Source of the DNA: an uncultured Rickettsiales bacterium
Lineage (GTDB): Bacteria > Pseudomonadota > Alphaproteobacteria > Rickettsiales > CAZNNM01
Length of the DNA: 64,000 nt
Direction: 5' to 3'
Assembly: GCA_964574415.1 (NCBI GenBank)
Contig: CAZNNM010000002.1
Location: forward strand, 239,110 to 303,109
Shown one piece after another: positions 1,401 through 61,858 of this stretch. The notes beneath the pieces are model-generated. The model ran no database searches, had not been told where the DNA came from, and was given only the letters and a program-made list of their open reading frames with translations. The translations under genes and the position numbers were made by a program. Position 1 is the first letter of the stretch. Each line of letters starts with the position of its first letter.

Positions 1401-1817
1401 TTACCAGCTTGCTAGCCCGTGTCCGGTTGGCAAAGTGTTTAAACTTGCTGCATTGGTTGGGTTTGCAATCGGTCTGTTGAAAATATCCCCAGAGGCATTC
1501 GGTAGCGTTGTCCGCATATCTGCCTCACGCAGCACCGAATAGGCATAATGCCGGCAATAGGCTGAGGCATCCTTCCACGCCAGATAATAATCAGGGATTT
1601 TGATCTTGGCTTCAGTGACCTTAAATTTATAGAAGGTCTGGTAATAGGCGTTGGTCATGTGCGAAAGCCCGGTTTCGCAGCCTTCTGTCCAGCCTTGCTT
1701 ATAATCGGGCGAGGCATCTTTCGGCATATCATCAAACAAGCGGTTGAGCGGCCGGAAGGTGGATGCACATCCCGTTAAGCCCATCACTAGAACTATTGCG
1801 AGTATCAGTGTTTTCAT
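1401..1817 (-). CDS. Lipoprotein, member 1 of a five-gene paralogous family (unknown function)
   Basis: 138 aa. Signal peptide with lipobox LTGC. The core DYKQGWTEGCETG...YYQTFYKFK...YYLAWKDASAYCRHY is shared with the four upstream genes. Confidence 0.75.
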   Translation of the reverse strand: MKTLILAIVLVMGLTGCASTFRPLNRLFDDMPKDASPDYKQGWTEGCETGLSHMTNAYYQTFYKFKVTEAKIKIPDYYLAWKDASAYCRHYAYSVLREADMRTTLPNASGDIFNRPIANPTNAASLNTLPTGHGLASW

Positions 1818-1820
1818 AGC

Positions 1821-2138
1821 CTACCAACTTTCCACCGCATCAAACTTCCACAACGTAAAGCGGAAGGTATATTGACGGCAATACGTATACGCATCTTTCC
1901 AGGCCTGATAATACATCTTATTCTGGATTTTATGCGTGTTTTGCGTGAATTTATAGAAGGTTTTATAATAGTTTGGCGCCATTGTACCCATACCGGTTTT
2001 GCAACCATCTCTCCAACCTTCCTGGAAATCTGGCGGCCCATCTGGCACATCGCCCATACCAAATGCCTTCGGCCCACCCAGTTTGGAGCTACAGGCGCTT
2101 AGCATCAGAATACAGGCTATAATGACTAGATACCGCAT
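1821..2138 (-). CDS. Lipoprotein, member 2 of the paralogous family
   Basis: Start set at ATG 2138 (MRYLVIIACILMLSAC), with GGAGA upstream. Core is GPPDFQEGWRDGCKTG...YYKTFYKF...YYQAWKDAYTYCRQY. Confidence 0.75.
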   Translation of the reverse strand: MRYLVIIACILMLSACSSKLGGPKAFGMGDVPDGPPDFQEGWRDGCKTGMGTMAPNYYKTFYKFTQNTHKIQNKMYYQAWKDAYTYCRQYTFRFTLWKFDAVESW

Positions 2139-2151
2139 ACTCCCATCTCCT

Positions 2152-2481
2152 CTAGAAGAACTCACGTTTGAGATATTGGAACATATAACGCTGGCAATAA
2201 TCAAACGCCGTTTTCCACCCAGTATAATAGGTTGGGTCTTGGGCTAAGGCACTGTCCTGCTTAAATTTATAGAACATTTTCTGATATTGGTTAGCCGTTG
2301 CCGAAATTCCCGTCTCACAGCCATCTTTCCAGCCTTGCTTAAAATTCGGCGGGCCAGGAGGGCCTTCAAACAGCATTTTCTGGTTTCCACCAAACGGCGA
2401 ACCTACGCGTGGTTTCCAGTCACACCCTGTAAGCAAGGTGAGAACGAATACAGCAGAGAGGATGATCGATAATAGTTTCAT
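2152..2481 (-). CDS. Lipoprotein, member 3 of the paralogous family
   Basis: 109 aa. Lipobox LTGC. Core is GPPNFKQGWKDGCETG...MFYKFKQD...YYTGWKTAFDYCQRY. Confidence 0.75.
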   Translation of the reverse strand: MKLLSIILSAVFVLTLLTGCDWKPRVGSPFGGNQKMLFEGPPGPPNFKQGWKDGCETGISATANQYQKMFYKFKQDSALAQDPTYYTGWKTAFDYCQRYMFQYLKREFF

Positions 2482-2945
2482 AACACACTATCACTTTTGA
2501 AGGGATCAACCCACATATCGGTTACACCATTAGCCCACGGGTTGCGGTATTCTGGCATGGTTTGATCGCCCCATTTACCAAAGGTATCAAACACACCGCC
2601 ACGGCCATCACCATCATAATCCATCAAACCATGCTCACCAATACTGAGCGCATAGACGGAGCAATAGCTATAGGCATCTTTCCATACTTGATAATACACA
2701 GGATTCTGCGCCAATATCGGGTCTTGCTTATACGAACCCCAGACTTTGTTAAACTGGGTAGCATAGGCTTTCCATCCACTCTGACAGCCATCTTTCCAGC
2801 CTTGTTCATATTCTGGCGGGCCTTTTGGCGGCACCATGTTTAAGTTCGCAGGCTTTGCCCAGTTAAATTGGGCATGACCACTGCTACACGCCGTAAGCAT
2901 CCCTATTAACATCATCATGGCAAGCGATCTGACGATCATTTTCAT
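2478..2945 (-). CDS. Lipoprotein, member 4 of the paralogous family (C-terminally extended)
   Basis: 155 aa. Lipobox LTAC. Core is GPPEYEQGWKDGCQSG...YYQVWKDAYSYCSVY. It overlaps the next gene by 4 bp. Confidence 0.75.
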   Translation of the reverse strand: MKMIVRSLAMMMLIGMLTACSSGHAQFNWAKPANLNMVPPKGPPEYEQGWKDGCQSGWKAYATQFNKVWGSYKQDPILAQNPVYYQVWKDAYSYCSVYALSIGEHGLMDYDGDGRGGVFDTFGKWGDQTMPEYRNPWANGVTDMWVDPFKSDSVL

Positions 2946-2951
2946 TACCTT

Positions 2952-3320
2952 TTAGTGCAAGTCCCAGTCTAAGTAGTATGCACAATATGAGCTTCCATCC
3001 GCAAAACCGCGTAGATACATCGGATCTTTGGATAATGTATATCCATCAATTTGCGGCTTCATCGTACGCAAAACCCCTGCACCCACAATCGACAGATGCG
3101 CCTCACAACCTGCACGCATCCCTTGGCTATAAGGATCATCACCTTGCGGTAGTTTTAAGAATGGCCGGCTTGGGGAGTATACACTGCCTTGCTTCGTATC
3201 CACAGGCTGTTTTAACCATGCCCAGCTACTGCTGTAACATCCTGACAATACAGCACAACACCCCACCATCAGCAGAATGCTTTTACCATGTGACCAGCAA
3301 GTGAATGTTTCTTTACGCAT
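2952..3320 (-). CDS. Lipoprotein, divergent member 5 of the paralogous family
   Basis: 122 aa. Lipobox LSGC. Retains a degenerate core (DPYSQGMRAGCEAH...MYLRGFADGSSYCAYY) with both Cys at equivalent positions. Confidence 0.6.
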   Translation of the reverse strand: MRKETFTCWSHGKSILLMVGCCAVLSGCYSSSWAWLKQPVDTKQGSVYSPSRPFLKLPQGDDPYSQGMRAGCEAHLSIVGAGVLRTMKPQIDGYTLSKDPMYLRGFADGSSYCAYYLDWDLH

Positions 3321-6659: not shown

Positions 6660-7110
6660 GATGAGAAATGGGGTACTGACTCATTTTGAAATTTTTATGT
6701 TTTTTTATTTCGCTTGTCATTCCGGACGTGATCCGGAATCCACCAAGACTGGTGCTTCTACGGAAATTCTTATCGATCACGCCGCCGTAACAGTGGATCC
6801 CGGATCACGTCCGGGATGACAAAAATGCAAAATGAGTCAGTGCCGAGAAATGGGCATTACTGTCATTGCGAGGAGCATTAGCGACGCGGGCAGGCCATCT
6901 CTAGAGGTTCTCGGTGCCTTAAATACCACCTGGATCGCCACGCTACGCTCGCGATGACGGCAGCATCTCTCTGTCATTCTTAGACTTGATCCAAGGATGA
7001 CAGGGGGCGCTCGTCACTGCGAGGAGCGATAGCGACGCGGCAGTCCATCTCTAGGGGTTCTCTGCGCCTTAAATACCACCTGGATCGCCACGCTACGCTC
7101 GCGATGACGG
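6660..7110. repeat. Cluster of TGTCAT-terminated palindromic repeats (MITE/REP-like)
   Basis: Family A copy at 6715..6821 (tgtcattccggacgtgatccggaatccac...gtggatcccggatcacgtccgggatgaca). Two near-identical family B copies at 6861..6960 and 7012..7110. A 30-bp hairpin at 6972..7001. Flanking inverted ctgactcatttt/aaaatgagtcag. Confidence 0.9.
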
Positions 7111-8566: not shown

Positions 8567-8778
8567 TGTCATCCTTGGACTTGATCCAAGGATCCATCAT
8601 AGACAGAGTGCAACAATACGGCGTTGAATAATGCTATTGGTTTTAGATGGATTCTTGGATCAAGTCCAAGAATGACAGAGAAAACCATATCACTGTCATC
8701 GCGAGCATAAGCGTGGTGATCCAGGGCAGAGAGTCCCGTCCCTGGATTACCATAGCTATTACGTGGCCTCGCAATGAC
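8567..8778. repeat. Palindromic repeats: family C (8567..8677) plus family B-like (8694..8778)
   Basis: tgtcatccttggacttgatccaaggatccat...atggattcttggatcaagtccaagaatgaca, followed by ctgtcatcgcgagc...cctcgcaatgacga. The same pair recurs at 11441..11704. Confidence 0.9.
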
Positions 8779-9015
8779 GATGAGCCATGCGACAACGCCG
8801 CTACAGCCTGACACGATTATATGCAATCTATAAACAAATAAATCATCTATATTTTTATTTATACCGTCTGGGGTATTATCATATTAACTACAAATCCCCC
8901 TCTGCTGCACTCACCATACGACAGCAAAATAAATAAAAATTTACTAGCCAGCCAGCACCCAAAATTGCTACAATGCTTTTTCGTGTTTTTTTATAATCGA
9001 GTCACTTAGCGAATA

Positions 9016-11336: not shown

Positions 11337-11704
11337 TGTCATTCACCGGCTTGATCCAAGAATCCATCACAAATAAATGCTTTATATTTTTAGATGGATT
11401 GCCGCGTCGCTAACGCTCCTAGCAATGACGAGGCTTACTTTGTCATCCTTGGGCTTGACCCAAGGATCCATCCTAAACAGAGAGCAACAATACGACTTTG
11501 AATAATGCTATGTATTTTAGATGGATTCTTGGATCAAGTCCAAGAATGACAGAGAAACCATACCACCGTCATCGCGAGCTTTAGCGAAGCGACTTTGTCT
11601 CGCCACAGCCCTTTAGGGCGTAGGAGGATTCATATTTCCTGCATAAAGGACGGAGAAGTTATAAACATGGATTGCCACGTCCACTATGTGGCCTCGCAAT
11701 GACG
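11337..11704. repeat. Cluster of palindromic repeats (partial family C, partial family B, full family C 11441..11551, family B 11567..11704)
   Basis: The sequence at 11441..11551 closely matches 8567..8677. cgtcatcgcgagc...cctcgcaatgacg at 11567..11704. Confidence 0.9.
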
Positions 11705-11839
11705 AGCAACCACGCAACAACGGCGATCAAGCCAACACATAACACAGAAACCACCCCTTCCCTGCTTTTTCTGCTATACTACCGAAGACTTTCCGCTTTT
11801 CATACGTATAAACCTATATACATATTACCAGGTTGCCCT

Positions 11840-12988
11840 ATGAACAAACGAACCCTTATTATATCTATCAGTATCTTAGCCATTCTCACCACCCTTACCG
11901 CCTGGTATATCACCAGCCGTTCCGGCACGGAAGCTTCTGCCACCAACCATGTTACCCTCACCCGTGGCACGATTGAGGAAACGGTAACGGCACAGGGGAA
12001 ATTGGAGCCGAAAGAATATGTGGATGTCGGCGCACAAGTATCAGGTCAGCTCAAGAAACTGCATGTGGATTTGGGCTATATTGTCAAAAAAGGTGATATT
12101 ATCGCCGAAATCGACCCCAAGGTCTATGAAGCCCGCGTAAAAGCCTCACAAGCGAAACTTGATACGCTCAAAGCCCAACTGGCTGAACAAGAAGCTGAAA
12201 CCAGCTTCGCTCAGCAGCAATTAGAACGTAATCAACGCCTAATTGCCTCAAAAGCCATTAGCCAGGAGGCTTTAGAAGACACCCAAACCGCCAAAAAAGT
12301 AGCCGAAGCCCGTGTAGCTTCTCTCAAGGCACAAATCGATGAAGCCCAATCCACCCTGGAAGGTGATCAGGCGAATTTGCAGTATACGAAAATTTATGCC
12401 CCGATGGATGGCACGGTGGTGGTGCTTACAACCCGCGAAGGCCAAACCGTCAATGCCAACCAAACCGCCCCGGTCATCGTGCAACTAGCCAATCTTGATA
12501 TTATGACCGTCAAAGCCCAAGTTGCTGAAGCCGATGTGATGCGCCTCAAGCCTGGGATGAATGTTTCCTTCGCCACACTCGGCAGCCTTGACCGCCGTTG
12601 GACAGGCACAATCCGCCAGATTCTCCCCTCACCTGAAATCATCAACGATGTCGTCCTCTATAACGCCCTCGTCGATGTCGATAATGCCGACCGCCAATTA
12701 ATGAGCGGGATGAGTACACAAATGTTCTTTGAACTGGGCAAGGCAGAGGATGTGTTACTCCTACCCGTCACCGCACTCGGCAAAGCCCTGCCAGAAGAAA
12801 ACAGTGAAAAAGGCACTGCCTACCAAGTGCGCACACCTGCTGGTATGAAAGTGATCCATACCGGTTTGATGAGCCGTAATTTTGTGGAGGTGACTGAGGG
12901 CTTAAAAGAGAGCGACACTGTAATTGCACCCTTAGGCGCCAATAAAGCAGCCGGCCAAACCCCACGCGGATTCGGGCCACGCATATGA
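11840..12988 (+). CDS. macA: Efflux periplasmic adaptor (membrane fusion protein), MacA-like
   Basis: Start set at ATG 11840 (MNKRTLIISISILAI...). HlyD/RND-MFP pattern with a coiled-coil segment and YTKIYAPMDGTVV. It overlaps macB by 4 bp. Confidence 0.85.
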   Translation: MNKRTLIISISILAILTTLTAWYITSRSGTEASATNHVTLTRGTIEETVTAQGKLEPKEYVDVGAQVSGQLKKLHVDLGYIVKKGDIIAEIDPKVYEARVKASQAKLDTLKAQLAEQEAETSFAQQQLERNQRLIASKAISQEALEDTQTAKKVAEARVASLKAQIDEAQSTLEGDQANLQYTKIYAPMDGTVVVLTTREGQTVNANQTAPVIVQLANLDIMTVKAQVAEADVMRLKPGMNVSFATLGSLDRRWTGTIRQILPSPEIINDVVLYNALVDVDNADRQLMSGMSTQMFFELGKAEDVLLLPVTALGKALPEENSEKGTAYQVRTPAGMKVIHTGLMSRNFVEVTEGLKESDTVIAPLGANKAAGQTPRGFGPRI

Positions 12989-14910
12989 GCGCATTGCTGG
13001 AAATTAGCCATATTAAGCGTTTTTATAGCAGTGGTGACACCACCGTCCGCGCGCTCGATGACGTATCGCTTTCCATTTACCCTGGCGAATTTGTGGCGAT
13101 TATGGGGCAATCGGGTTCGGGTAAATCGACTTTAATGAACATCATCGGCTGCTTGGATCAGCCAACCTCAGGCAGCTATAAAGTGCGCGGTATTGAAGCC
13201 AGCACGCTCGATAGTGATGCACTGGCTGCACTGCGGCGTGATACGTTTGGCTTTATCTTCCAACGCTATAACCTGCTTGCCACCGCTACTGCCGAAGAGA
13301 ACGTAGAAATTCCTGCTATCTATGCTGGAAAGCCCAAAGAATCCCGCGTTATACAAGCGCGCAAACTGCTCACCCGCTTAGGACTGGGTGACCGTAGTGA
13401 CCACACACCATCCCAACTTTCCGGCGGCCAGCAACAACGTGTCGCTATTGCACGTGCCTTGATGAATAACCCGCCGATTATTCTCGCCGATGAACCCACC
13501 GGTGCGCTGGATAGCCGTAGCGGTGAAGAAGTCATGGCATTGCTCAAAGAACTCCACAGCGAAGGCCGCACAATTATCCTGATTACCCATGATGAAAACG
13601 TCGCCGCTAACGCAGAACGCATCATCCGTATTCAAGATGGGAAGATCGTTGAAGAAAGTGGAAAAATTATCACCGACCCACAGATCACCGCCACCAAACA
13701 CCACCTCGCCCATGCCGATAGTATCGGCGATATTAGCGAAGCGATTAAAATGGCAATGCGCTCCCTACACACAAACCTCTTCCGCACCGCCCTTACCTTA
13801 CTGGGCATTATTATTGGTGTCGCTTCGGTGATTATTATGCTCGCCGTGGGTGATGGCAGTAAACAAAAAGTGCTGGATCAAATTTCAGCTATGGGAACCA
13901 ATCTCCTCGGTGTACGCCCTGGCGCGCCAGGGATACGCGGTGGTGGCGATGTGATCACCCTCATTCCTGATGATGCAGAAGCCATTACCCATATCAATAA
14001 TGTCGAAATCGCCGTGCCAGAACGTGGCGGCAGATTCACGGTACGCTATGGCAATATCGACTATGCCACCGCCATACAAGGCGTTGGCGAAGGCTTCTCT
14101 GCTGCGCGTGATTGGCAGGTTGTTGCAGGTAGCTTCTTCACCGAGCGCGATGTGAAAAGCTATGCACCAGTCGCACTACTGGGTAAAACCGTACTCAACA
14201 ATTTATTCCCCAATGGCGAGAATCCCATTGGCGAATATATCCTCATCCGCAACGTACCGTTTGAAGTGATTGGCATTATGGATGAAAAAGGCGCCGGCTG
14301 GGGTGGTGATCAGGATGATGCGGTGGTTATTCCTTATACTACAGGCATTATCCGCCTATTCGGCCTGCCATATCTCAACTCCATTACGGTGAAAGTGACC
14401 GACCTAAAACATATCGATAAAACCCAAGAAGACATCACCGAACTGCTCAAAGCCCGCCATCGCACAGAAGATTTCAGCATTCGTAGTTCCGCCTCGATTA
14501 TCGACATGGCCTCCACCGCTCAAAACACGCTCACCGTATTGCTTGGTGCTGTAGCCGCAATTTCACTTTTCGTAGGCGGTATTGGAGTGATGAATATTAT
14601 GCTGGTAAGCGTCACCGAACGCACACGCGAAATCGGCATACGCATGGCCACCGGCGCACGGATGCGGGATATTATGGTGCAGTTTAATACGGAAGCAGCG
14701 GTGGTATGTACTGTCGGCGGTGTATTAGGACTCATACTCGGATTCACAGGCGGATTTATCCTGCAAGGATTTGGCGTCTCTGTGCTGTTTTCACCCTTCC
14801 CCGCCATGCTTGCATTCTCATGTGCTGTGCTGACAGGTGTTGTATTCGGCTATCTACCTGCACGCAAAGCCGCCAAGCTTGATCCTGTTGTTGCACTAGC
14901 GTCGGAGTAG
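12985..14910 (+). CDS. macB: MacB-type ABC transporter (fused ATPase and FtsX-like permease)
   Basis: 641 aa. Walker A GQSGSGKST, signature LSGGQQQRVAIARA and Walker B ILADEPTGALD, followed by a large periplasmic loop and a C-terminal 4-TM FtsX domain (TREIGIRMATGAR). Confidence 0.9.
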   Translation: MSALLEISHIKRFYSSGDTTVRALDDVSLSIYPGEFVAIMGQSGSGKSTLMNIIGCLDQPTSGSYKVRGIEASTLDSDALAALRRDTFGFIFQRYNLLATATAEENVEIPAIYAGKPKESRVIQARKLLTRLGLGDRSDHTPSQLSGGQQQRVAIARALMNNPPIILADEPTGALDSRSGEEVMALLKELHSEGRTIILITHDENVAANAERIIRIQDGKIVEESGKIITDPQITATKHHLAHADSIGDISEAIKMAMRSLHTNLFRTALTLLGIIIGVASVIIMLAVGDGSKQKVLDQISAMGTNLLGVRPGAPGIRGGGDVITLIPDDAEAITHINNVEIAVPERGGRFTVRYGNIDYATAIQGVGEGFSAARDWQVVAGSFFTERDVKSYAPVALLGKTVLNNLFPNGENPIGEYILIRNVPFEVIGIMDEKGAGWGGDQDDAVVIPYTTGIIRLFGLPYLNSITVKVTDLKHIDKTQEDITELLKARHRTEDFSIRSSASIIDMASTAQNTLTVLLGAVAAISLFVGGIGVMNIMLVSVTERTREIGIRMATGARMRDIMVQFNTEAAVVCTVGGVLGLILGFTGGFILQGFGVSVLFSPFPAMLAFSCAVLTGVVFGYLPARKAAKLDPVVALASE

Positions 14911-14912
14911 TT

Positions 14913-16301
14913 ATGATACGCCCCTTTCTCCTTACTACATGCCTGATAAGCCTTGCCAGTTGCACTCCCTCTATGGAAAAATTGACAGCAATGGCCATCC
15001 CAAGCCAATGGAAACAACAACCTACTGCAAGCACTGGGCCAGCCTTGCCCGATACCACTGCGCCCTGGTGGGAAAATTTTCAGGATGCGGAGCTTAATAG
15101 CCTAGTCACCGATGCGCTTGCACATAATAACGATGTGCAAGCTGCCATTACACGCGTGGAACAAGCCCGTGCCAGCCGTGTGATTGGTGGTGCAGGCCTA
15201 TGGCCGAATCTGAATCTCACGGGCGGCGCATCAAAGAATAATAGCGATATCAATGGTACCAGCGAACGTTATAATGCACAGCTCGGCGTTGCGTATGAGT
15301 TGGATTTATTCGGCAAAAACCTATCCCTCAAACACGCAGCCGATGCTAATTTCCGTGCGAGCCAATACGATAAAAAGGCGATTGATCTCATTACCTCTTC
15401 TGATGTAACTGCCAGCTATTTCAACACGCTTTCTCTTGATGACCAAATCAAGGATGCCGAACAAAATGTGAGCAATGCGCAAGAAATTTTGGATATTATC
15501 GAAGCACGGTTTAAAGAGGGCAGTGTTTCGGCGCTGGAAGTCTCCCAACAACGCACCGAGCTTGCCACTACTCAAGCCCAAAGAGCCGCGCTTATTGATC
15601 AACGCAATGCATCACTCACACAGCTTGCCGTCCTCCTCGGCAAAGCCCCGCAAGAATTTAACCTGCGCACAGAAACACTGGCTGAGCTTACCGCGCCACA
15701 GATTGCACCAACACTGCCAGCAACCTTACTCACCGCACGCCCCGATATACAACGCGCAGAAGCCACCCTTGCTGCCGCCCGCGCCAATGTCAGCGCCACA
15801 CGGGCCGCACTTTTCCCTAGCCTTACTTTAGGCGCCAGCGCCTCTGCACTGGCTAATCCTGCCGAAGCCGTAACCTCTATTAGCGCATCACTGGTTGCCC
15901 CTTTATTCCAAGGTGGCCGGTTAAAAGCCGATCTTGACCGCGTCACCGCGCGGCAGATGGAATTGGTGCAAGACTACCAGAAAACCGTGCTAACTGCCTT
16001 TAAAGAAGTAGAAGATGCGCTTTCTGCCAACAAGGCAGCTGATACGCGTTACACTCTCTTCACCACCGCAGCAACCGAAGCAGATAATGCCTATAATCTC
16101 GCCCGCGAACGGTTTGATGCCGGTGCGATTGATTTCCAAACCCTGCTTGACACACAACGCAGCCAACTCCAAGCCCATACAAACCTCACCCAAGCCAAAC
16201 AAGAATCCCTTGTAGCCGCTCTGGCACTGTATCGGGCGTTAGGTGGGAATACGAAAATGACAACGCTAGCGTTATCGGATAACGGATTGCAGGAGGAGTG
16301 A
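14913..16301 (+). CDS. Outer-membrane efflux lipoprotein, NodT/TolC family
   Basis: 462 aa. Lipobox LASC. Two OEP repeats (TARPDIQRAEATLAAARANVSATRAALFPSLTL). It is the third gene of the macAB operon. Confidence 0.85.
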   Translation: MIRPFLLTTCLISLASCTPSMEKLTAMAIPSQWKQQPTASTGPALPDTTAPWWENFQDAELNSLVTDALAHNNDVQAAITRVEQARASRVIGGAGLWPNLNLTGGASKNNSDINGTSERYNAQLGVAYELDLFGKNLSLKHAADANFRASQYDKKAIDLITSSDVTASYFNTLSLDDQIKDAEQNVSNAQEILDIIEARFKEGSVSALEVSQQRTELATTQAQRAALIDQRNASLTQLAVLLGKAPQEFNLRTETLAELTAPQIAPTLPATLLTARPDIQRAEATLAAARANVSATRAALFPSLTLGASASALANPAEAVTSISASLVAPLFQGGRLKADLDRVTARQMELVQDYQKTVLTAFKEVEDALSANKAADTRYTLFTTAATEADNAYNLARERFDAGAIDFQTLLDTQRSQLQAHTNLTQAKQESLVAALALYRALGGNTKMTTLALSDNGLQEE

Positions 16302-16339
16302 TGGGTTGTTATGAGGAGATAGCAAAGCGCAGACATCCT

Positions 16340-16705
16340 TGCAATTCTTGGGCTTGATGCATTGCCTGATCGTCACTGCGAGGAGCAGTAGCGACGCGGC
16401 GGTCCATGTTTAGGGTTTCTCTGTTCCTTATGTAGGATACATGGATCGCCACATTTTGCTGGCGATGAACAAAACATTCATTGTCATCCTTGGACTTGAT
16501 CAGCGTTGTTGCATGGCTCCATACCCTATTGCTATTTGTCATCCCGGACGTGGCGGTTCGATGAAATCGAGAGCGGGATCCACTGTTATGGCAGAGTGAT
16601 TTATAAGCATTGAATGTGGAAGCGCCAGTCCTGGTGGATTCCGGGTCAAGCCCGGAATGACAAAAGAGGGCCAGGCAACAATGCCCACTTGACCCAAGGA
16701 TAACA
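16340..16705. repeat. Composite palindromic repeat cluster (family B 16371..16468; outer family D arms enclosing family A 16537..16662)
   Basis: cgtcactgcgaggagcagtagcgacgcgg... is followed by tgtcatccttggacttgatcagcgttgttgcatgg...[tgtcatcccggacg...cccggaatgaca]...gacccaaggataaca. Confidence 0.85.
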
Positions 16706-16719
16706 AGCAATACGGACGA

Positions 16720-20588: not shown

Positions 20589-20616
20589 CGTCATCCCAGC
20601 GAAGGCTGGGATCCAG
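20589..20616. repeat. Half-copy of a family E repeat (short hairpin)
   Basis: cgtcatcccagcgaaggctgggatccag is related to the ends of 25741..25865 and 45602..45722. Confidence 0.7.
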
Positions 20617-20662
20617 TCCTCTTAACCATAAAGCAAAAATTTAGCCTGATTCAGAAAATAGA

Positions 20663-21811
20663 CTAATCCCTTCCATCCCTCGCAATATCAAACGTAAACA
20701 CCGTCTCCTCACCTTTCGGACGCTCCAGCACTTCGGTATGGCGCAGAGTACGCACAGTGTCGTAATAACCCGCTTTCCAATGCTCCTCCATACTCTGGCG
20801 GGAGAATTCGTAATCTTTGGAATCGCCTTCGTAACCTTGTGTATGGTAAATAAGTTGGATAATATTATAGACCTTACGCTGCGACGCCTCACGCAATAGC
20901 TCCACTTCAGGAAGCTCCTGCATCTCTTTCGGCAGTTTATCCAGCAAACTTGCTGCTGCATAACGCAGTTTCTGTGAACGCTTAAAGCGATCCGTATTAG
21001 CGCGTGTGCGGCTAGAATATTGGATTTCTTTTTGCCGTGTCATCACTTTAGCAATATCACATGGCATATCACCCCGCGCATTCCATAAATCCACTTGGAA
21101 TGCGAGCGTATCGTGTTGCGGACGGCTTTCTAATACCCAGTCAAGCGGCGTGTTGGATACCAAACCACCATCCCAATAATACTCGCCCTCAATCTCCACC
21201 GCCGGAAACCCTGGCGGCAATGCACCGCTGGCCACAATATGGCTTGGCATGATGGTATGGGTGGTATTATCAAAATAGATAAAATTCCCTGTGCGCACAT
21301 TCACTGCGCCTATACTAAAACGGGTGGTATCGGCATTGATGCGGTCAAAATCGATAAAGCGCTCTAGAGTGCTGTATAATGGGCTGGTATCGTAATAACT
21401 CGTCGCCCCTTCTGTGCCATGCGGCTGTAGCCATGGCACAGGCAAGCGCGGCAGGAAGAATCCTGGCACACCTTTAACCATGATCTCGCCTGCAAATAGT
21501 TGGTTCATGATGCCACGTGTGACGCTATCCGGCCGGAACCACTCCACCTGCGCCCAGGAAGGCGATGTGATAGATTCCCAGAATTGGCGGAGCTTGCTGA
21601 CACGGTCTTTTTCGGGATTACCGGCAATAATAGCCGAATTAATCGCCCCAATAGAAATACCTGCCACCCAATCCGGATGGATACCCGCTTCCGCCAGCGC
21701 CTCATAGACACCGCCTTGATACGCCCCAAGCGCACCACCACCCTGCAAAAGCAAGGCGATACATTCAAACGGCGGGCGTTGCTGGACTTTGTGTGTTTTT
21801 TTATGGGCCAT
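20663..21811 (-). CDS. Patatin-like phospholipase
   Basis: 382 aa. Oxyanion motif LQGGGALGAYQGG, nucleophile elbow GISIGA (GxSxG) and a later DGG motif. Confidence 0.85.
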   Translation of the reverse strand: MAHKKTHKVQQRPPFECIALLLQGGGALGAYQGGVYEALAEAGIHPDWVAGISIGAINSAIIAGNPEKDRVSKLRQFWESITSPSWAQVEWFRPDSVTRGIMNQLFAGEIMVKGVPGFFLPRLPVPWLQPHGTEGATSYYDTSPLYSTLERFIDFDRINADTTRFSIGAVNVRTGNFIYFDNTTHTIMPSHIVASGALPPGFPAVEIEGEYYWDGGLVSNTPLDWVLESRPQHDTLAFQVDLWNARGDMPCDIAKVMTRQKEIQYSSRTRANTDRFKRSQKLRYAAASLLDKLPKEMQELPEVELLREASQRKVYNIIQLIYHTQGYEGDSKDYEFSRQSMEEHWKAGYYDTVRTLRHTEVLERPKGEETVFTFDIARDGRD

Positions 21812-21875
21812 AATGGCGTATAATAGCCATAATTCGCTTCAATAGCAAGCTTACCCACTTTTTTCCTCTGCCCCT

Positions 21876-21904
21876 CTTGATATTCCCGCCAAACATCCCT
21901 ATAT
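21876..21904 (+). promoter_or_regulatory. Putative RpoH (sigma-32) heat-shock promoter of dnaK
   Basis: CTTGATA at 21876..21882 and CCCTATAT at 21897..21904. This fits the alphaproteobacterial CTTG-N17/18-CYTATNT consensus, about 65 bp upstream of the dnaK ATG. Confidence 0.55.
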
Positions 21905-21967
21905 AAGTTTTGAGAGATAAGCGCAACCTGCGTCAGAAATAATTAAGTCACTGATAATGAGGAAAAA

Positions 21968-23887
21968 ATGGGAAAAGTAATAGGAATTGACTTAGGAACA
22001 ACAAACTCCTGCGTTGCCATTATGGAGGGCAAGAACACCCGCGTATTAGAAAATGCCGAAGGTGGCCGCACCACCCCGTCTATCGTTGCCATCACCGAAG
22101 GTGGCGAACGCTTAGTCGGCGCGCCTGCCAAACGCCAGGCTGTAACCAACCCGAAAAACACTATTTTCGCGGTTAAACGTTTGATCGGCCGTACATTCAA
22201 CGACCCAACAACCAAAAAAGATGCGGAAATTGTGCCGTATTCTATCGTGAAAGCCGACAATGGCGATGCATGGGTAGAAGCACATGAGAAGAAATATTCT
22301 CCAAGCCAAATCAGTGCGTTCATTCTGCAAAAAATGAAAGAAACTGCTGAGAGTTTCCTGGGTGAAGAAGTAACCCAGGCGGTGATCACCGTGCCTGCAT
22401 ATTTCAATGATGCACAACGTCAAGCAACCAAAGATGCGGGTAAAATTGCTGGTCTTGAAGTGCTTCGTATCATCAACGAGCCAACCGCTGCCGCTCTTGC
22501 TTATGGCCTGGATAAAGCCGATGGTAAAACCATTGCGGTATATGACTTAGGTGGTGGTACATTCGACGTATCGATCCTCGAAATCGGCGATGGCGTGTTT
22601 GAAGTGAAATCGACCAATGGTGACACATTCCTTGGTGGTGAAGACTTCGATATCCGCATTCTCGAATACCTCGCAGATGAGTTCAAAAAAGACAACGGCA
22701 TTGACCTGCGTAAAGATCCTTTAGCGCTGCAACGTCTGAAAGAAGCGGCTGAGAAGGCGAAAATTGAACTCTCTAGCGCACAAGAAACCGATATCAACCT
22801 GCCATACATCACCGCTGATGCAAGCGGCCCTAAACACTTAACACTGAAACTGAGCCGTGCAAAATTGGAAAGCTTGGTGGATGATCTGGTGGCTCGCACT
22901 ATCGATCCATGCAAAGCAGCGCTGAAAGATGCTGGTTTGAAAGCGAGCGATATTGACGAAGTGGTACTGGTGGGCGGTATGACCCGTATGCCTAAAGTAC
23001 AACAACGCGTACAAGAATTCTTCGGCCGTGAACCACATAAAGGTGTGAACCCGGATGAAGTAGTGGCCATCGGTGCTGCGATTCAAGGTGGCGTGTTAAA
23101 GGGCGATGTGAAAGATGTATTGCTGCTTGATGTAACCCCACTTTCACTCGGTATCGAAACCCTGGGCGGCGTGTTCACGCGTTTGATTGAGCGTAACACC
23201 ACTATCCCTACCAAGAAGAGCCAAGTGTTCTCGACCGCTGATGATAACCAATCAGCTGTAACCATCCGCGTATTCCAAGGTGAACGTGAGATGGCAGCGG
23301 ACAACAAACTGCTCGGCCAGTTTAATCTGGAAGATATTCCACCGGCTCCACGCGGTATGCCACAAATCGAAGTGACATTTGATATTGATGCCAACGGTAT
23401 CGTGAATGTGAGCGCGAAAGATAAGGCTACCAATAAAGAGCAGAATGTTCGCATTCAAGCCTCTAGCGGTTTGAGCGATAGCGATATCGATAAAATGGTA
23501 AAAGACGCCGAAAGCCATGCAAGCGACGATAAAAAACGCAAAGAGCTGGTAGAAGCGCGTAACCAAGCCGATAGCTTAATTTACTCTACTGAAAAGAGCT
23601 TGAAAGAATACGGCGATAAAATCGGCGCTGATGAGCGTGGTGCGATTGAATCCGCTGTTGCTGATGTAAAAGCAGCGCTGGAAGGCGATGATGTGGAGGC
23701 GATTAAAGCCAAAACGGAAAGCCTGACACAAACCGCTATGAAACTCGGCGAAGCAATCTATAAAGCCCAACAAGCCGAAGGCTCTGCTGATGCGCAAGCA
23801 CAAGCTGCCGATGCTGATAACAAAGAAGATGGCAAAGTAGTGGATGCTGATTTTGAAGAAGTGAAAGACGATAAAAAAGCGTCTTAA
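21968..23887 (+). CDS. dnaK: Molecular chaperone DnaK (Hsp70)
   Basis: 639 aa. [30 protein letters not shown] and [13 protein letters not shown] signatures. Confidence 0.98.
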
Positions 23888-23907
23888 GCATTAGGGGTCT
23901 GGATCCG

Positions 23908-23954
23908 GGATTCAGGATTCAGGAAGAGGGAAAAAATCCCTGAATCCTGAATCC
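23908..23954 (+). other. Intercistronic stem-loop between dnaK and dnaJ
   Basis: Perfect 16-bp inverted repeat ggattcaggattcagg (23908..23923) / cctgaatcctgaatcc (23939..23954) with a 15-nt loop. There is no T-tract, so it is more likely a processing or attenuation structure than a full terminator. Confidence 0.6.
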
Positions 23955-23978
23955 TGGATGCTGGATCCTGAAAATATT

Positions 23979-25732
23979 ATGAGTAAACAAGACTATTACA
24001 GCCTACTTGGTGTGCAACGTGGTGTGAATGCGGATGAGCTTAAAAAAGCTTACCGCAAACTTGCGATGCAATACCACCCAGACCGCAATCCTGGCGATGC
24101 CGCCGCCGAGCAAAAATTCAAAGAAGTCAGTGAAGCGTATGACGTCTTAAAAGACGATCAAAAACGCGCAGCCTATGACCGTTATGGCCATGCAGCATTT
24201 GAGAATGGTGGCATGGGCGGAATGGGCGGCGGCCGCAATGCTGGCTTTGATTTTAATGGCAGTTTTGCAGATATATTTAGCGATCTCTTCGGTGAAATGG
24301 GCGGCCGTGGCGCCGGCGGTGGACGTGGCGGCGAAGCGGCACGTAGCCGTGGCTCTGATCTACGCTATAACCTCAATATCACCCTCGAAGAAGCCTTTGC
24401 AGGCAAACAAGAAAAAATCCGCTTTAATACCCTTGCATCCTGCGATGAATGCGATGGCAAAGGAAGCAAAAGCAGTGCTGGCGTTACCAATTGCCCAACC
24501 TGTAACGGTATGGGGAAAGTGCGCGCGCAACAAGGATTCTTCACCATTGAACGCACCTGCCCAAGCTGTCATGGCGTTGGCCAAACGATCAAAGACCCAT
24601 GTGGTAAATGCCGTGGTGAAGGCCGCGTGCAACGTGAGAAAACCTTATCCGTCACCATTCCAGCCGGCGTGGAAGAAGGCACACGCATTCGCTTAGCAGG
24701 CGAAGGCGAGATGGGCATACGCAATGGCACACCCGGCGATTTATATATCGTCATCGATGTAAAACAACACGCGCTCTTCCAGCGCGATGGCAGCAATATC
24801 CATTGCCGCGTTCCACTCACCATGACAACAGCCGCGTTAGGCGGCAGCGTAGAAGTGCCAACCATTGACGGCACACGCGCAAAAGTGTCTATCCCTGCTG
24901 GCACTCAATATGGCGACCAATTCCGCCTCAAAGGCAAAGGTATGAGCATTATCCACTCGAAGAATCGTGGTGACATGTATATCCATGCCACAATCGAAAC
25001 ACCGGTAAAACTCACCAAACGCCTAATACCCTTGCATCCTGCGATGAATGCGATGGCAAAGGAAGCAAAAGCAGTGCTGGCGTTACCAATTGCCCAACCT
25101 GTAACGGTATGGGGAAAGTGCGCGCGCAACAAGGATTCTTCACCATTGAACGCACCTGCCCAAGCTGTCATGGCGTTGGCCAAACGATCAAAGACCCATG
25201 TGGTAAATGCCGTGGTGAAGGCCGCGTGCAACGTGAGAAAACCTTATCCGTCACCATTCCAGCCGGCGTGGAAGAAGGCACACGCATTCGCTTAGCAGGC
25301 GAAGGCGAGATGGGCATACGCAATGGCACACCCGGCGATTTATATATCGTCATCGATGTAAAACAACACGCGCTCTTCCAGCGCGATGGCAGCAATATCC
25401 ATTGCCGCGTTCCACTCACCATGACAACAGCCGCGTTAGGCGGCAGCGTAGAAGTGCCAACCATTGACGGCACACGCGCAAAAGTGTCTATCCCTGCTGG
25501 CACTCAATATGGCGACCAATTCCGCCTCAAAGGCAAAGGTATGAGCATTATCCACTCGAAGAATCGTGGTGACATGTATATCCATGCCACAATCGAAACA
25601 CCGGTAAAACTCACCAAACGCCAAAAAGAACTGCTACAAGAATTTGAAAGCGGCGCCGAAACGGGCTCTTCACCGGAATCAGAAGGATTCTTTAAGAAGG
25701 TGAAGGAATTGTGGGGGGATTTGAAAAGTTAG
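23979..25732 (+). pseudogene. dnaJ: dnaJ interrupted by a perfect 599-bp internal tandem duplication (frameshift)
   Basis: J domain (DYYSLLGV...HPDRNP), G/F region, CxxCxGxG zinc fingers and the C-terminal domain are all present. The reading frame breaks at 25023/25024. Removing one 599-bp copy restores a 384-aa ORF ending ...[11 protein letters not shown]. Confidence 0.85.
24425..25622 (+). repeat. Perfect direct tandem duplication, 2 x 599 bp, inside dnaJ
   Basis: 24425..25023 and 25024..25622 read identically line by line. Antisense ORFs 24569..24904 and 25168..25503 give identical 111-aa translations offset by 599 nt. Confidence 0.95.
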
Positions 25733-25740
25733 GACAATAG

Positions 25741-25865
25741 TGTCATTCCAGCGGAGGCTGGAATCCAGTTATTACTGGTGAGCATAGCGAACTCCCTATT
25801 AAAGGACAAGTGTTCGCTACCGCTCACAAACATTGCGCTGGATGCCAGCCTACGCTGGCATGACA
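25741..25865. repeat. Family E palindromic repeat
   Basis: tgtcattccagcggaggctggaatccag...ctggatgccagcctacgctggcatgaca. The internal part is also self-complementary (gagcatagcgaac.../...gttcgctaccgctc). Confidence 0.9.
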
Positions 25866-25961
25866 ACACTCATCGCCCCTCACTAAAACACTTACTTTTT
25901 CTTAACGATCTGCTATACTCTTTATCCATAATGGAAACGAACAACCCCTAGGTAGAGTATC

Positions 25962-26465
25962 ATGCCTTACTCATCACTTGCTATTGCCAATGAATTCATC
26001 GACCGCGCTAACAAAGCCGGACAGCCGCTGACGAATATGCAGCTGCAAAAATTGGTATATCTGGCGCATGGGTTTAACCTGGCAGTAAATAATTCTCCGC
26101 TGGTGGAAGAATCGGTGGAAGCATGGAATTATGGCACGGTATACCGCCGTCTCTATGATGCACTTAAATTCTACGGCCCCACACCCGTGATTGAGATGAT
26201 CCGTTGGGGCGATGATACGCCCAGTGTTTCTGGCGCTGGCGAATATGCCCGCGAATCCCTTAAACCAGAAGAAGATGAGCTGATCACCCGCGTATGGCAA
26301 CTCTATGGCCACTTCCCAGCCTTCAAGCTGTCTGCCATCACCCATGAAGAGCGCAGCCCATGGAAGAAATGCTACGAACCAGGGAGAAATCGTGCTATAC
26401 CTGATAACGATATACGCGATTATTTCTGCTCACTGATTGAGAATAAGGTTGAGAGTCAAGCATGA
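25962..26465 (+). CDS. DUF4065 / Panacea-domain protein (SocA/PanA-type putative antitoxin)
   Basis: 167 aa. The N-terminal pattern AIANEFIDRANKAGQPLTNMQLQKLVYLAHGFNLAVNNSPLVEESVEAWNYGTVYRRLY matches the DUF4065 consensus (LQKLLYyAqG..La....pLf.e.ieAW.yGPV...vY). Confidence 0.8.
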   Translation: MPYSSLAIANEFIDRANKAGQPLTNMQLQKLVYLAHGFNLAVNNSPLVEESVEAWNYGTVYRRLYDALKFYGPTPVIEMIRWGDDTPSVSGAGEYARESLKPEEDELITRVWQLYGHFPAFKLSAITHEERSPWKKCYEPGRNRAIPDNDIRDYFCSLIENKVESQA

Positions 26466-26842
26466 CATTACCGGATGTATTAACCCGCGACGCGCTCAGC
26501 TCCGCCATCGCTCTGACCGAGCAAAAAACCGAGCCGGATCAACTCGATCAACTGGAATCTTCGCGCGCTTATAATGATGCACGCACACGCTCTATCACCG
26601 AAGAGAACCTAGACCGCAAAGCCAACCGCCGTCTGCGCTTTCAATATGCACGGCAGGTATATTTATATTTGGTATGGTATTCAATTATTGCAGCGCTGAT
26701 TCTCGTGTTAGAGGCGTTTGGCCCGCATATTGGTTTCCATTTACCTGAACTCGTACTCGTCACCCTCGTCGGCAGCACAGGAGCAAGCGCAATTGGCTTA
26801 GTAGGATTCGTGGTAAACGGCTTATTCAAAGGCGGAGCATAA
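26462..26842 (+). CDS. Small two-TM protein, candidate toxin partner of the Panacea-domain protein
   Basis: 126 aa. ATGA start/stop overlap with the upstream gene. Charged N-terminal half, then two hydrophobic helices (VYLYLVWYSIIAALILVLEAF; LVLVTLVGSTGASAIGLVGFVVNGLF). No family recognised. Confidence 0.55.
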   Translation: MTLPDVLTRDALSSAIALTEQKTEPDQLDQLESSRAYNDARTRSITEENLDRKANRRLRFQYARQVYLYLVWYSIIAALILVLEAFGPHIGFHLPELVLVTLVGSTGASAIGLVGFVVNGLFKGGA

Positions 26843-26843
26843 T

Positions 26844-27377
26844 ATGGCACATGTCTTACTCATCATCACAGGCAGTATTGCGGCGATTAAAACCTATGAC
26901 ATTATCCGCCAACTAAAAGCAAAATCAATCGATGTCACTTGTGTGCTAACGCGCGCGGCTGAGCAGTTTGTGACACCGCTTTCGCTTGCTTCACTTTCTG
27001 GCAATAAAGTCTATACGGATATGTTCTCCCTCACCGATGAAATTGAAATGGGGCATATCCAGCTTTCGCGCATGGCAGATTTGGTAGTGGTTGCACCTGC
27101 CAGTGCCGATAGCATCGGCAAACTCGCACAAGGCCTGGCAGATGACCTTGCTAGCACTCTGCTGCTTGCCACCGATAAAAAAGTCCTCATCGCCCCTGCG
27201 ATGAATGTGCGTATGTGGGAGCATCCGGCAGTGCAACGCAATGTCGCACGCATCCAGAATGATGGCGCAATTCTCGTTGAGCCTGTAGACGGTGATTTAG
27301 CCTGTGGCGAAACCGGAAAAGGCCGTATGGCAGAGCCAGAGGCTATTGTGCAGGCGATTACGGCGCAGCTACGATGA
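26844..27377 (+). CDS. coaC: Phosphopantothenoylcysteine decarboxylase (CoaC flavoprotein domain as a separate ORF)
   Basis: 177 aa. LLIITGSIAAIKTYDIIRQLK and PAMNVRMWEHPAVQRN motifs. The stop overlaps the coaB ATG (ATGA). Confidence 0.85.
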   Translation: MAHVLLIITGSIAAIKTYDIIRQLKAKSIDVTCVLTRAAEQFVTPLSLASLSGNKVYTDMFSLTDEIEMGHIQLSRMADLVVVAPASADSIGKLAQGLADDLASTLLLATDKKVLIAPAMNVRMWEHPAVQRNVARIQNDGAILVEPVDGDLACGETGKGRMAEPEAIVQAITAQLR

Positions 27378-28009
27378 AAGCCCTCGTCACCAGCGGCCCA
27401 ACGCAAGAACGCATTGATCCCGTCCGCTATCTCAGCAATGATTCCTCCGGCAAACAAGGCCATGCTATTGCAGCAGCGCTTGCTGCGCGTGGAATAGAGG
27501 TTGTGTTGATCTCTGGCCCCGTTCATATTCCCGATCCAGCAGGCGTGCGTGTGGTACATGTTATAACGGCCGAAGAAATGCTTGCCGCTTGCGAGCGTGA
27601 GCTACCGTGTGATATCGCGATTTGCGCTGCCGCCGTCAGCGATTGGTGCGCAAAAACCATCGCGCCTCACAAGCTCAAAAAACAACAGGATCAAAACGAG
27701 CTAACATTCACCCTCATCAAAAACCCTGATATTCTATCCCATCTCAGCCACCATGCCAAACGCCCCTCACTGGTAGTTGGGTTTGCGGCAGAAACCGAAA
27801 ATCTCCTCACCAATGCCCGCAATAAACTGGCCTCTAAAGGCTGCGATTGGATTATGGCCAATGATGTATCTAAAGGACAAGTATTTGGACAGGATCGTAC
27901 TTCGGTACATCTGATTACCGCTGAACAAACGCTTCATTGGGATAATCTGAGTAAAACAGAAATGGCGGAGCGGTTGGTGGAGCGGATTATTAGCACCGTC
28001 TCTGCTTAA
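27374..28009 (+). CDS. coaB: Phosphopantothenate--cysteine ligase (CoaB domain as a separate ORF)
   Basis: 211 aa. ALVTSGPTQERIDPVRYLSNDSSGKQG and AAAVSDW motifs. Confidence 0.85.
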   Translation: MKALVTSGPTQERIDPVRYLSNDSSGKQGHAIAAALAARGIEVVLISGPVHIPDPAGVRVVHVITAEEMLAACERELPCDIAICAAAVSDWCAKTIAPHKLKKQQDQNELTFTLIKNPDILSHLSHHAKRPSLVVGFAAETENLLTNARNKLASKGCDWIMANDVSKGQVFGQDRTSVHLITAEQTLHWDNLSKTEMAERLVERIISTVSA

Positions 28010-28037
28010 ATTCGATTCCATATTGCTGCATATTACT

Positions 28038-28134
28038 CGTCATTGCGAGGTCACATAGTGGCCGTGGCAATCCAGGGCAACCTCCTCCGTTCTTTAAGAT
28101 GGCCCTGGATCGCCGCGCTTACGCTCGCGATGAC
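28038..28134. repeat. Family B palindromic repeat
   Basis: cgtcattgcgaggtcacatagtggccgtggcaatccagg...cctggatcgccgcgcttacgctcgcgatgaca. Confidence 0.9.
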
Positions 28135-32842: not shown

Positions 32843-33049
32843 TGTCATACTTGGGCTTGACCAGCATTATTGCATGGCTGCCTAACCTATTGATAGTAGT
32901 CATCCCGGACTTGATCCGGGATCCACTGTTATGGGGGCGTAATATAGAAGAATCTAGGTGAAAGCGCCAGTCTTGGTGGATTCCGGATCAAGTCCGGAAT
33001 GACAAGAGCGGGATCCATGCAACAACGCCGATCAAGCCCAAGAATGACA
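32843..33049. repeat. Nested composite repeat: family A element (32899..33004) inside family D arms
   Basis: tgtcatacttgggcttgaccagcattattgcatgg...[gtcatcccggacttgatccgggatccac...ggattccggatcaagtccggaatgac]...ccatgcaacaacgccgatcaagcccaagaatgaca. Confidence 0.9.
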
Positions 33050-33136
33050 ACCCTTATTTCAAAATGAATCACTACCTTCTAGATTGATACGTTCAATGTC
33101 CTACGCCAACGTGCTCGGCGTAAGACCAAACCAACC

Positions 33137-37265: not shown

Positions 37266-37276
37266 TGTAAGCTTCT

Positions 37277-37515
37277 TGTCATTCTTGGACTTGATAGGTG
37301 TTATTGCATGTCTCTCTTTTGTCATTCCGGGCTTGCGTAAGTCTTGCCGTAGCTTTAGCGAAGGCAGAACCCGGAATCCACCAGGACTGGCGCTTCCACA
37401 TTCAATGCTTATAAATCACGCTGCCTTAACAGTGGATCCCGGATCACGTCCGGGATGACATATAGCAATACGTTAGTGAGCCCGGCAACAACGCCGACGT
37501 GATCCAAGGATGACA
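37277..37515. repeat. Nested composite repeat (family D arms around family A copy 37321..37460, which carries an extra internal hairpin)
   Basis: tgtcattcttggacttgataggtgttattgcatg...[gtcattccgggcttgcgtaag...gtggatcccggatcacgtccgggatgaca]...caacaacgccgacgtgatccaaggatgaca. Confidence 0.9.
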
Positions 37516-40805: not shown

Positions 40806-40816
40806 CAAATACCCTT

Positions 40817-40847
40817 TGTCATTCTTGGACTTGATCCAAGAATCCAT
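40817..40847. repeat. Partial family C repeat
   Basis: tgtcattcttggacttgatccaagaatccat is the left arm only. Confidence 0.8.
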
Positions 40848-40904
40848 CTAAACTTCAAAGCTATATTTTTCACTACTGGCCGTGCGAATGACAGCCATTC
40901 TCGC

Positions 40905-45601: not shown

Positions 45602-45722
45602 TGTCATTCCAGCGTAGGCTGGAATCCAGCGCAACGCTTGCGAACGTTTAGTGAGCGCTTTATATTTCGCGTTCACTACGCTCACGAGTAATTACTAGAT
45701 CCCAGCCTGCGCTGGGATGACA
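45602..45722. repeat. Family E palindromic repeat in the carA-carB spacer
   Basis: tgtcattccagcgtaggctggaatccag...ctagatcccagcctgcgctgggatgaca, with an internal inverted gtgagcg.../...cgctcac segment. Confidence 0.9.
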
Positions 45723-52257: not shown

Positions 52258-52460
52258 TGCCATTCACCGGTCAAGCCAGCGTACAACAAGGAATATACTC
52301 ATCATCCTTGGATTTGAAGGGTGTTATTGCATGGCCACTAACCTATTGATAATTGTCATCCTGGACGTGATCCGGGATCCACTGTTATGGGGGCGTAATG
52401 TAGAAGAATCTAGGTGAAAGCGCCAGTCATGATGGATTCCGGGTCAAGCCCGGAATGACA
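52258..52460. repeat. Composite repeat (partial family C/D arms plus family A 52354..52460)
   Basis: ...catcatccttggatttgaagggtgttattgcatgg...[tgtcatcctggacgtgatccgggatccac...ggattccgggtcaagcccggaatgaca]. The right outer arm is absent. Confidence 0.85.
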
Positions 52461-52467
52461 AGAAGTC

Positions 52468-59273: not shown

Positions 59274-59474
59274 GCGATGACAAGTATATCATTGCCAAAC
59301 GCCCACTTTGATCGGCGTTGTTGCATGGCTCTCGCTCTTGTCATTCCGGACTTGATCCGGAATCCACCAAGACTGGCGCTAAGAGCTGCATTCTTATAGA
59401 TCACGCTAGCATAGTAGTGGATCCCGGATCAAGTCCGGGATGACAAGGATCAATAGGTTGATCCAAGGATGATA
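59274..59474. repeat. Nested composite repeat (family D-like arms around family A 59339..59445)
   Basis: ...gatcggcgttgttgcatgg...[tgtcattccggacttgatccggaatccac...gtggatcccggatcaagtccgggatgaca]...ttgatccaaggatgataa. Confidence 0.85.
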
Positions 59475-61681: not shown

Positions 61682-61803
61682 CGTCATTGCATGACGTTGA
61701 TACTTGTCATCCCGGATGTGATCCGGGATCCACTGTTAGGGCAGCGTGATCTATAAGTTGAAGCGCCAGTCTGGGTGGATTCCGGGTCAAGCCCGGAATG
61801 ACA
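61682..61803. repeat. Family A palindromic repeat (61705..61803) with an adjacent small palindrome
   Basis: cgtcattgcatgacg, then tgtcatcccggatgtgatccgggatccac...ggattccgggtcaagcccggaatgaca. Confidence 0.9.
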
Positions 61804-61858
61804 AGAAAAGAGCTTAACAAAGATAGAAAAAGCCCCAGATATCTGCTATAAAGACTCT

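Follow-up and report, generated by a model that had tools for sequence, protein, structure and literature searches.

The exact 599-nt tandem duplication that breaks the reading frame of dnaJ in this genome is best explained as a false duplication, made during assembly or joining, in an organism that carries one intact dnaJ. We put the probability of this reading at roughly two in three. A false duplication in the deposited assembly probably makes an intact and conserved gene look like a pseudogene or like two gene fragments, and it would distort the annotation, the pseudogene counts and the completeness estimates for the genome. The main value of the finding is therefore that of a data-quality flag, and the finding is otherwise ordinary.

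A perfect tandem repeat within dnaJ

The window, by which we mean the whole 64-kb stretch of DNA that was analysed, contains two adjacent copies of a 599-nt unit within dnaJ, arranged head-to-tail as a direct repeat. The features discussed below are the following.

21968 to 23887, plus strand: dnaK, 639 aa, directly upstream of dnaJ; the Pfam HSP70 match was obtained on the Logan gene call
23958 to 25295, plus strand: frameshifted dnaJ ORF, 445 aa, consisting of DnaJ residues 1-356 and an 89-aa out-of-frame tail
24425 to 25023, plus strand: copy 1 of the 599-nt unit, identical to 25024-25622
24994 to 25053, plus strand: 60-mer across the junction, TCGAAACACCGGTAAAACTCACCAAACGCC joined to TAATACCCTTGCATCCTGCGATGAATGCGA, the sole sequence specific to the duplication
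25024 to 25622, plus strand: copy 2 of the 599-nt unit, missing from the read-derived contig L001
25109 to 25732, plus strand: downstream ORF, 207 aa, with a second copy of the zinc-finger and C-terminal domains and the true C-terminus
25623 to 25732, plus strand: true 3' end of dnaJ, 35 codons and the stop codon, ending in ...WGDLKS

Direct base comparison of 24425-25023 with 25024-25622 gave 0 mismatches over the 599 nt of each copy, which confirms the exact repeat described in the first-pass annotation of this DNA. The self-match at period 599 is bounded exactly by 24425 and 25023. It cannot be extended by a single base on either side, and the duplication thus has no microhomology at its junction. 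The junction lies at 25023/25024 and reads ...AAACGCC/TAATACC...; written as one string, the 60-mer that spans it is TCGAAACACCGGTAAAACTCACCAAACGCCTAATACCCTTGCATCCTGCGATGAATGCGA. The window contains no N, at this position or elsewhere. A repeat search identified the unit as the only long perfect repeat in the 64 kb. Tandem Repeats Finder did not report it, because the period of 599 exceeds the program's longest period of 500. Chance cannot account for an exact repeat of this length. We also considered an ancient internal repeat of DnaJ and rejected it, because the DNA of the two copies does not differ at any position and the relatives show a collinear, single-copy gene.

Within dnaJ, the unit begins with the third base of codon 156, and its final base is the first one of codon 356. 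Since 599 is not a multiple of 3, the second copy shifts the frame. In the ORF as written, the frame departs after ...KLTKR and runs to a stop at 25295, while the true C-terminus is encoded in the downstream ORF at 25109-25732. Once one copy is removed, 25623-25732 falls in frame with 23958-25023 and the gene encodes 391 aa from the ATG at 23958, or 384 aa from the ATG at 23979 (MSKQDYY). ORF calling and translation thus bear out what had been noted before about the loss of frame, the position of the stop and the whereabouts of the C-terminus. The 384-aa DnaJ expected upon deletion of one copy is also recovered, if counted from ATG 23979.

A read-derived contig of the same strain carries one intact dnaJ

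The protein collection already lists the 445-aa frameshift product, which derives from NCBI and lies on a 392,388-nt contig. We therefore rejected the idea that the duplication was introduced when the window was cut. Exact look-ups of the 445-, 438- and 207-aa frameshift products in the contig index returned no match. The same look-up with the DnaK of the window, a product that is exactly shared between the NCBI source and Logan, returned one contig, Logan SRR9674365_353917 (here L001; 4576 nt), an assembly of raw reads. L001 carries the patatin-like gene, dnaK and an intact dnaJ of 391 aa. It is 100% identical to the window from 20596 to 25023 and then proceeds directly with 25623-25770, and so corresponds to 20596-25770 minus one copy of the unit. 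Both unit boundaries are contiguous in this contig.

We simulated the k=31 de Bruijn graph of the L001 stretch, once with the duplication and once with a single copy. With the duplication as input, the graph falls into four unitigs of 3859, 599, 60 and 178 nt, in which the junction, if it occurred in the reads, would form the 60-nt unitig of its own. With one copy as input, the graph consists of one unitig of 4576 nt, which matches the Logan contig exactly in length and coordinates. The unbroken 4576-nt contig therefore means that the junction is either absent from SRR9674365 or so rare there that graph cleaning removed it. The clean-up of Logan contigs could in principle drop a junction that is found in a minority of reads.

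Three additional Logan contigs, retrieved under run SRR9107545, are each 100% identical to the window, at 11550-16511 (L002), 25743-28130 (L084) and 20596-22012 (L086); for both L002 and L084, two samples are on record. With L001 included, these contigs cover about 11.9 kb of unique sequence from two runs, in which we found no substitution or indel besides the duplication. The read sets and the assembly thus stem from the same strain. For SRR9107545, no gene-bearing contig across dnaK-dnaJ is on record, and the contig from this run stops at 22012, within the first part of dnaK. The copy-number comparison hence rests on one read set, SRR9674365, by way of its contig, and SRR9107545 says nothing either way.

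Against this background, neither the earlier reading that the organism's dnaJ is frameshifted nor the suggestion that an essential co-chaperone has been inactivated or split is supported as biology, since dnaJ is intact in L001 of the same strain. Three possibilities had been left side by side in the first-pass annotation, namely a recent real duplication, a heterogeneous locus and an assembly artefact. The single-copy contig favours the last of these, or at most a variant that is not fixed.

Further searches concerned the junction and the products that a broken graph would yield. The 86 loci that were fetched contain none of the 30 31-mers across the junction. Neither genome_contigs nor metagenome_contigs has a match to a 37-mer taken from the unit's end, which means that this dnaJ sequence, and with it the organism, is not represented in either collection. 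The proteins expected from a graph break, a 199-aa fragment of the unit and a 165-aa N-terminal fragment, are absent from the collection of 15 billion proteins, a weak negative as well, since very short contigs may lack gene calls. Among the matches listed for the 199-aa query, no fragment exceeded 72% identity and all were of at most 349 aa. This negative is weak because the identical 391-aa protein (P0001) was itself unlisted; the search seems to be length-limited relative to the query. The exact products of carB, aspS and the UvrD-like ORF also gave no match upon look-up, which could be explained by start-codon choice or by fragmented contigs.

Domain content of the dnaJ products

The restored protein is a class A (type I) DnaJ, whose alignment with the solved bacterial DnaJ 6jzb runs end to end (residues 11-385 to 11-381, E = 9e-91). 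It shares with this class the J domain with its HPD motif, the G/F region, the four CxxCxGxG motifs and DnaJ_C. The J domain (PF00226) covers residues 12-74 with E = 5e-27, and the HPD lies within 'YHPDRN'. A G/F-rich linker at residues about 83-125 is directly visible in the translation. The zinc-binding domain (PF00684) spans residues 162-222 and comprises the four CxxCxGxG motifs, including CGKCRGEG. DnaJ_C (PF01556) is matched over profile positions 1-152 of 152 at residues 135-349, both in the frameshifted and in the restored protein.

One detail is to be corrected, in that the gene is not badly broken. The frameshifted ORF retains complete Pfam matches to DnaJ, DnaJ_CXXCXGXG and DnaJ_C, as well as the G/F region, and loses only the last 35 residues, which we take to be the segment corresponding to the dimerisation region. 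In comparison with 6jzb, the version in the window has these residues split off by the frame shift. The C-terminal extension is interrupted in the ORF of the window and contiguous in L001, as it is after removal of one copy. The motif across the restored join aligns with 6jzb. A second dnaJ in the 64-kb window was considered and rejected, as tblastn matches this locus only.

Relatives carry a single-copy dnaJ under purifying selection

The DnaJ cluster at 90% identity has three members, which are the frameshift product of the window, the intact P0001 and a protein of 386 aa (P0122). The frameshift occurs in the window's own product only. P0122 comes from Logan run SRR21902431, where it is encoded on a 7642-nt contig (L003) of a related species with about 82-84% nucleotide identity. 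L003 shares the gene order of the window and has dnaJ in a single copy, and the motif across the restored join is contiguous and identical there. Between the restored dnaJ and that of L003, 126 codons differ by synonymous changes only and 22 by non-synonymous ones, which indicates that dnaJ is under purifying selection in this lineage. In all 80 related genome loci, the match extends over about 1.1-1.2 kb, as expected for a gene in single copy. Judged by these sequence comparisons, the single-copy dnaJ is the ancestral form. The best named relatives of this DnaJ are found in Rhodospirillum and the Azospirillaceae (65-68% identity), and the closest species-representative genome is that of an uncultured Rickettsiales MAG, with a DnaJ identity of 66%.

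These comparisons also bear on the idea that the arrangement is functional. Here, the organism would maintain two products, a monomeric DnaJ-like protein and a 207-aa protein with zinc finger and C-terminal domain, or would use the repeat as a reversible on/off switch of DnaJ. Both ORFs are indeed open and both contain DnaJ domains. Yet the copies show zero divergence, which leaves no time for maintaining selection, and the 89-aa tail is out-of-frame sequence. By eye, no Shine-Dalgarno-like sequence is visible upstream of the ATG at 25109 (...ccaacctgtaacggtATG). Moreover, neither another read set of the same strain nor the related species represented by L003 shows this arrangement. We regard a functional arrangement as very improbable.

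Origin of the duplication

In the reading that we favour, a false duplication, two pieces of sequence that overlapped by 599 nt would have been joined end to end, with the overlap left unmerged. Contigs or long-read segments may have been the pieces, or else both ends of one sequence that underwent rotation or extension afterwards. The join could have been made in the course of long-read or hybrid assembly, during scaffolding or the closing of gaps, by hand, or when a sequence was rotated with its overlap still untrimmed. Joining in this way leads to identical direct copies, an arbitrary unit length and a junction without microhomology, as is seen here. Short-read assemblers of the graph-based type cannot, to our knowledge, build a junction that is absent from every read. 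An artefact would thus need a long-read, overlap-based, scaffolding, gap-filling or manual joining step, and this weakens the reading. We infer both that the source assembly's own reads lack the junction and which kind of joining produced it.

Two properties of the locus are those of an artefact. The copies carry no copy-specific variants (0 of 599 positions), and the junction is unsupported by independent data from the same genome, in the form of the unbroken single-copy contig of SRR9674365 (indirect evidence from one read set). A third property that may mark such joins, a gap, a run of N or a known contig join at the junction, is not seen in the N-free window, which also weakens the artefact reading. 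Faulty joining or gap filling that duplicates a sequence is a well-documented kind of assembly error (Ko et al. 2022, PMC9516828; Kelley and Salzberg 2010, PMC2864568). The present case resembles the false (homotype) duplications described there in its identical adjacent copies, in the apparent disruption or gain of a gene and in the single copy found in independent data. It differs from them in that the published cases are from vertebrates, have copies that are usually separated by gaps and were diagnosed by read depth, whereas no gap or N accompanies the repeat in the window.

The main alternative is that the duplication is real and very recent. It would then have been frequent in the DNA from which the assembly was made, and absent or rare in the sample of SRR9674365, through clonal drift or through population heterogeneity of an unstable duplication that can revert by recombination between the copies. 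The product would be DnaJ residues 1-356 with an 89-aa nonsense tail, devoid of the C-terminal dimerisation segment. We consider this possible, but rather unlikely. In its favour, the duplication is present in the public assembly inside a 392-kb contig, and a loop of this kind is one that most assemblers would build only with support from reads. The identity of the copies and the absence of any other difference from the Logan contigs would also fit a very young event. In addition, the truncated DnaJ keeps every domain that Pfam detects. Tandem duplications in bacteria are frequent and reversible (for example in the work of Roth and Andersson). In Synechocystis, the J and G/F domains of the major DnaJ suffice for viability, although not for heat resistance (PMC7609799). 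A DnaJ mutant without its last 35 residues could therefore survive.

Several observations weigh against a real duplication. The contig derived from reads of the same strain is single-copy, with an unbroken graph. The end points lack any microhomology or flanking repeat that could have promoted the event. Furthermore, dnaJ is strongly conserved in the lineage, and the duplication is absent from every other sample or relative that was compared, with no junction 31-mer in the 86 fetched loci and no other frameshifted member in the DnaJ cluster. Ten other genes scanned near the locus are all intact, and there is thus no sign of general gene decay.

Spontaneous tandem duplications in bacteria are either RecA-dependent events between repeats or of the short-junction or microhomology types. 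The repeat in dnaJ is like these unstable duplications in being a head-to-tail direct repeat with identical copies that is potentially reversible. It is unlike them in its lack of end-point homology, in its intragenic, frame-disrupting unit of 599 nt and in its absence from the contig of same-strain reads. We find it doubtful that the duplication is real and segregates in an alphaproteobacterium that is uncultured or host-associated, with one DNA preparation dominated by it and another in which it is rare. If true, it would constitute a natural and reversible knock-down of a core co-chaperone, with a monomeric DnaJ that lacks the dimerisation segment. A real event would provide a modest case of a gene-disrupting duplication that is young and unstable, rather than a new kind of system, and would be relevant to mutation and drift in small bacterial populations.

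The surrounding locus

The locus is a dnaK-dnaJ operon of ordinary make-up in a divergent alphaproteobacterium. On the upstream side, dnaK is preceded by the patatin-like gene (on the minus strand), aspS and an RNase D-like gene. On the downstream side, dnaJ is followed by a Panacea-domain antitoxin-like gene and a small membrane ORF, then by coaC and coaB as separate genes, by a tRNA and by a gene for a UvrD-like helicase; carB, dnaG and rpoD lie farther downstream. One structural element separates the two chaperone genes.

23898 to 23971, plus strand: very stable stem-loop between dnaK and dnaJ, -51 kcal/mol, z = -7.4

Because this stem-loop spans the first ATG at 23958, translation of dnaJ likely starts at the ATG at 23979. 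The DnaJ of the related species (L003) begins at the corresponding MSKQDYY, and the true start of dnaJ is probably ATG 23979. By eye, L003 has a hairpin of different sequence at the same position between dnaK and dnaJ (about 838-872), which would mean that the hairpin is conserved in position and not in sequence. The stem-loop may act as an intra-operon attenuator or as an RNA stability element.

Directly 3' of dnaJ, at 25962-26842 on the plus strand, two ORFs share 4 nt. One is an antitoxin-like gene with a SocA/Panacea domain (167 aa, Pfam E = 1e-19), and the other, of 126 aa, has no Pfam match and hydrophobic C-terminal segments. The two may form a toxin-antitoxin pair, and both are kept at the same place in L003. 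They are followed at 26844-28009 on the plus strand by a coaC-like gene (Flavoprotein, 177 aa) and a coaB-like gene (DFP, 211 aa), which are separate and overlap by 4 nt. Bacteria usually carry a fused coaBC. The separate arrangement is also found in L003.

Repeat families elsewhere in the window

The window contains several families of palindromic intergenic repeats of about 40-150 nt, which occur in both orientations and have ends such as TGTCAT(T/C)C...GAATGACA. They resemble REP- or MITE-like elements and comprise the following sets.

6713-6835, 16574-16707, 32864-33050, 37275-37515, 52336-52464, 59308-59459 and 61697-61807: palindromic repeat set
8627-8680, 11337-11378, 11501-11554 and 40814-40867: palindromic repeat set
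6889-7110, 8740-8808, 11668-11733, 16370-16430 and 28033-28077: palindromic repeat set
25821-25865 with 45602-45646: palindromic repeat pair

One of the copies is located just 3' of dnaJ. The Logan contigs, built with k=31, end at palindromic repeats (20596 and 25743/25770), and the short-read contigs of this organism are consequently only 1-5 kb long.

A different kind of repetition is found on the minus strand at 1401-3320, where five tandem paralogous small genes encode proteins of 109-155 aa with lipoprotein-like N-termini. The five paralogues share the motif PP(D/E)(F/Y)(K/Q)QGW(K/T/R)(D/E)GC...YY..WKDA..YC and appear in the repeat search as direct repeats with a spacing of about 320 nt (repeat families D4 and D7).
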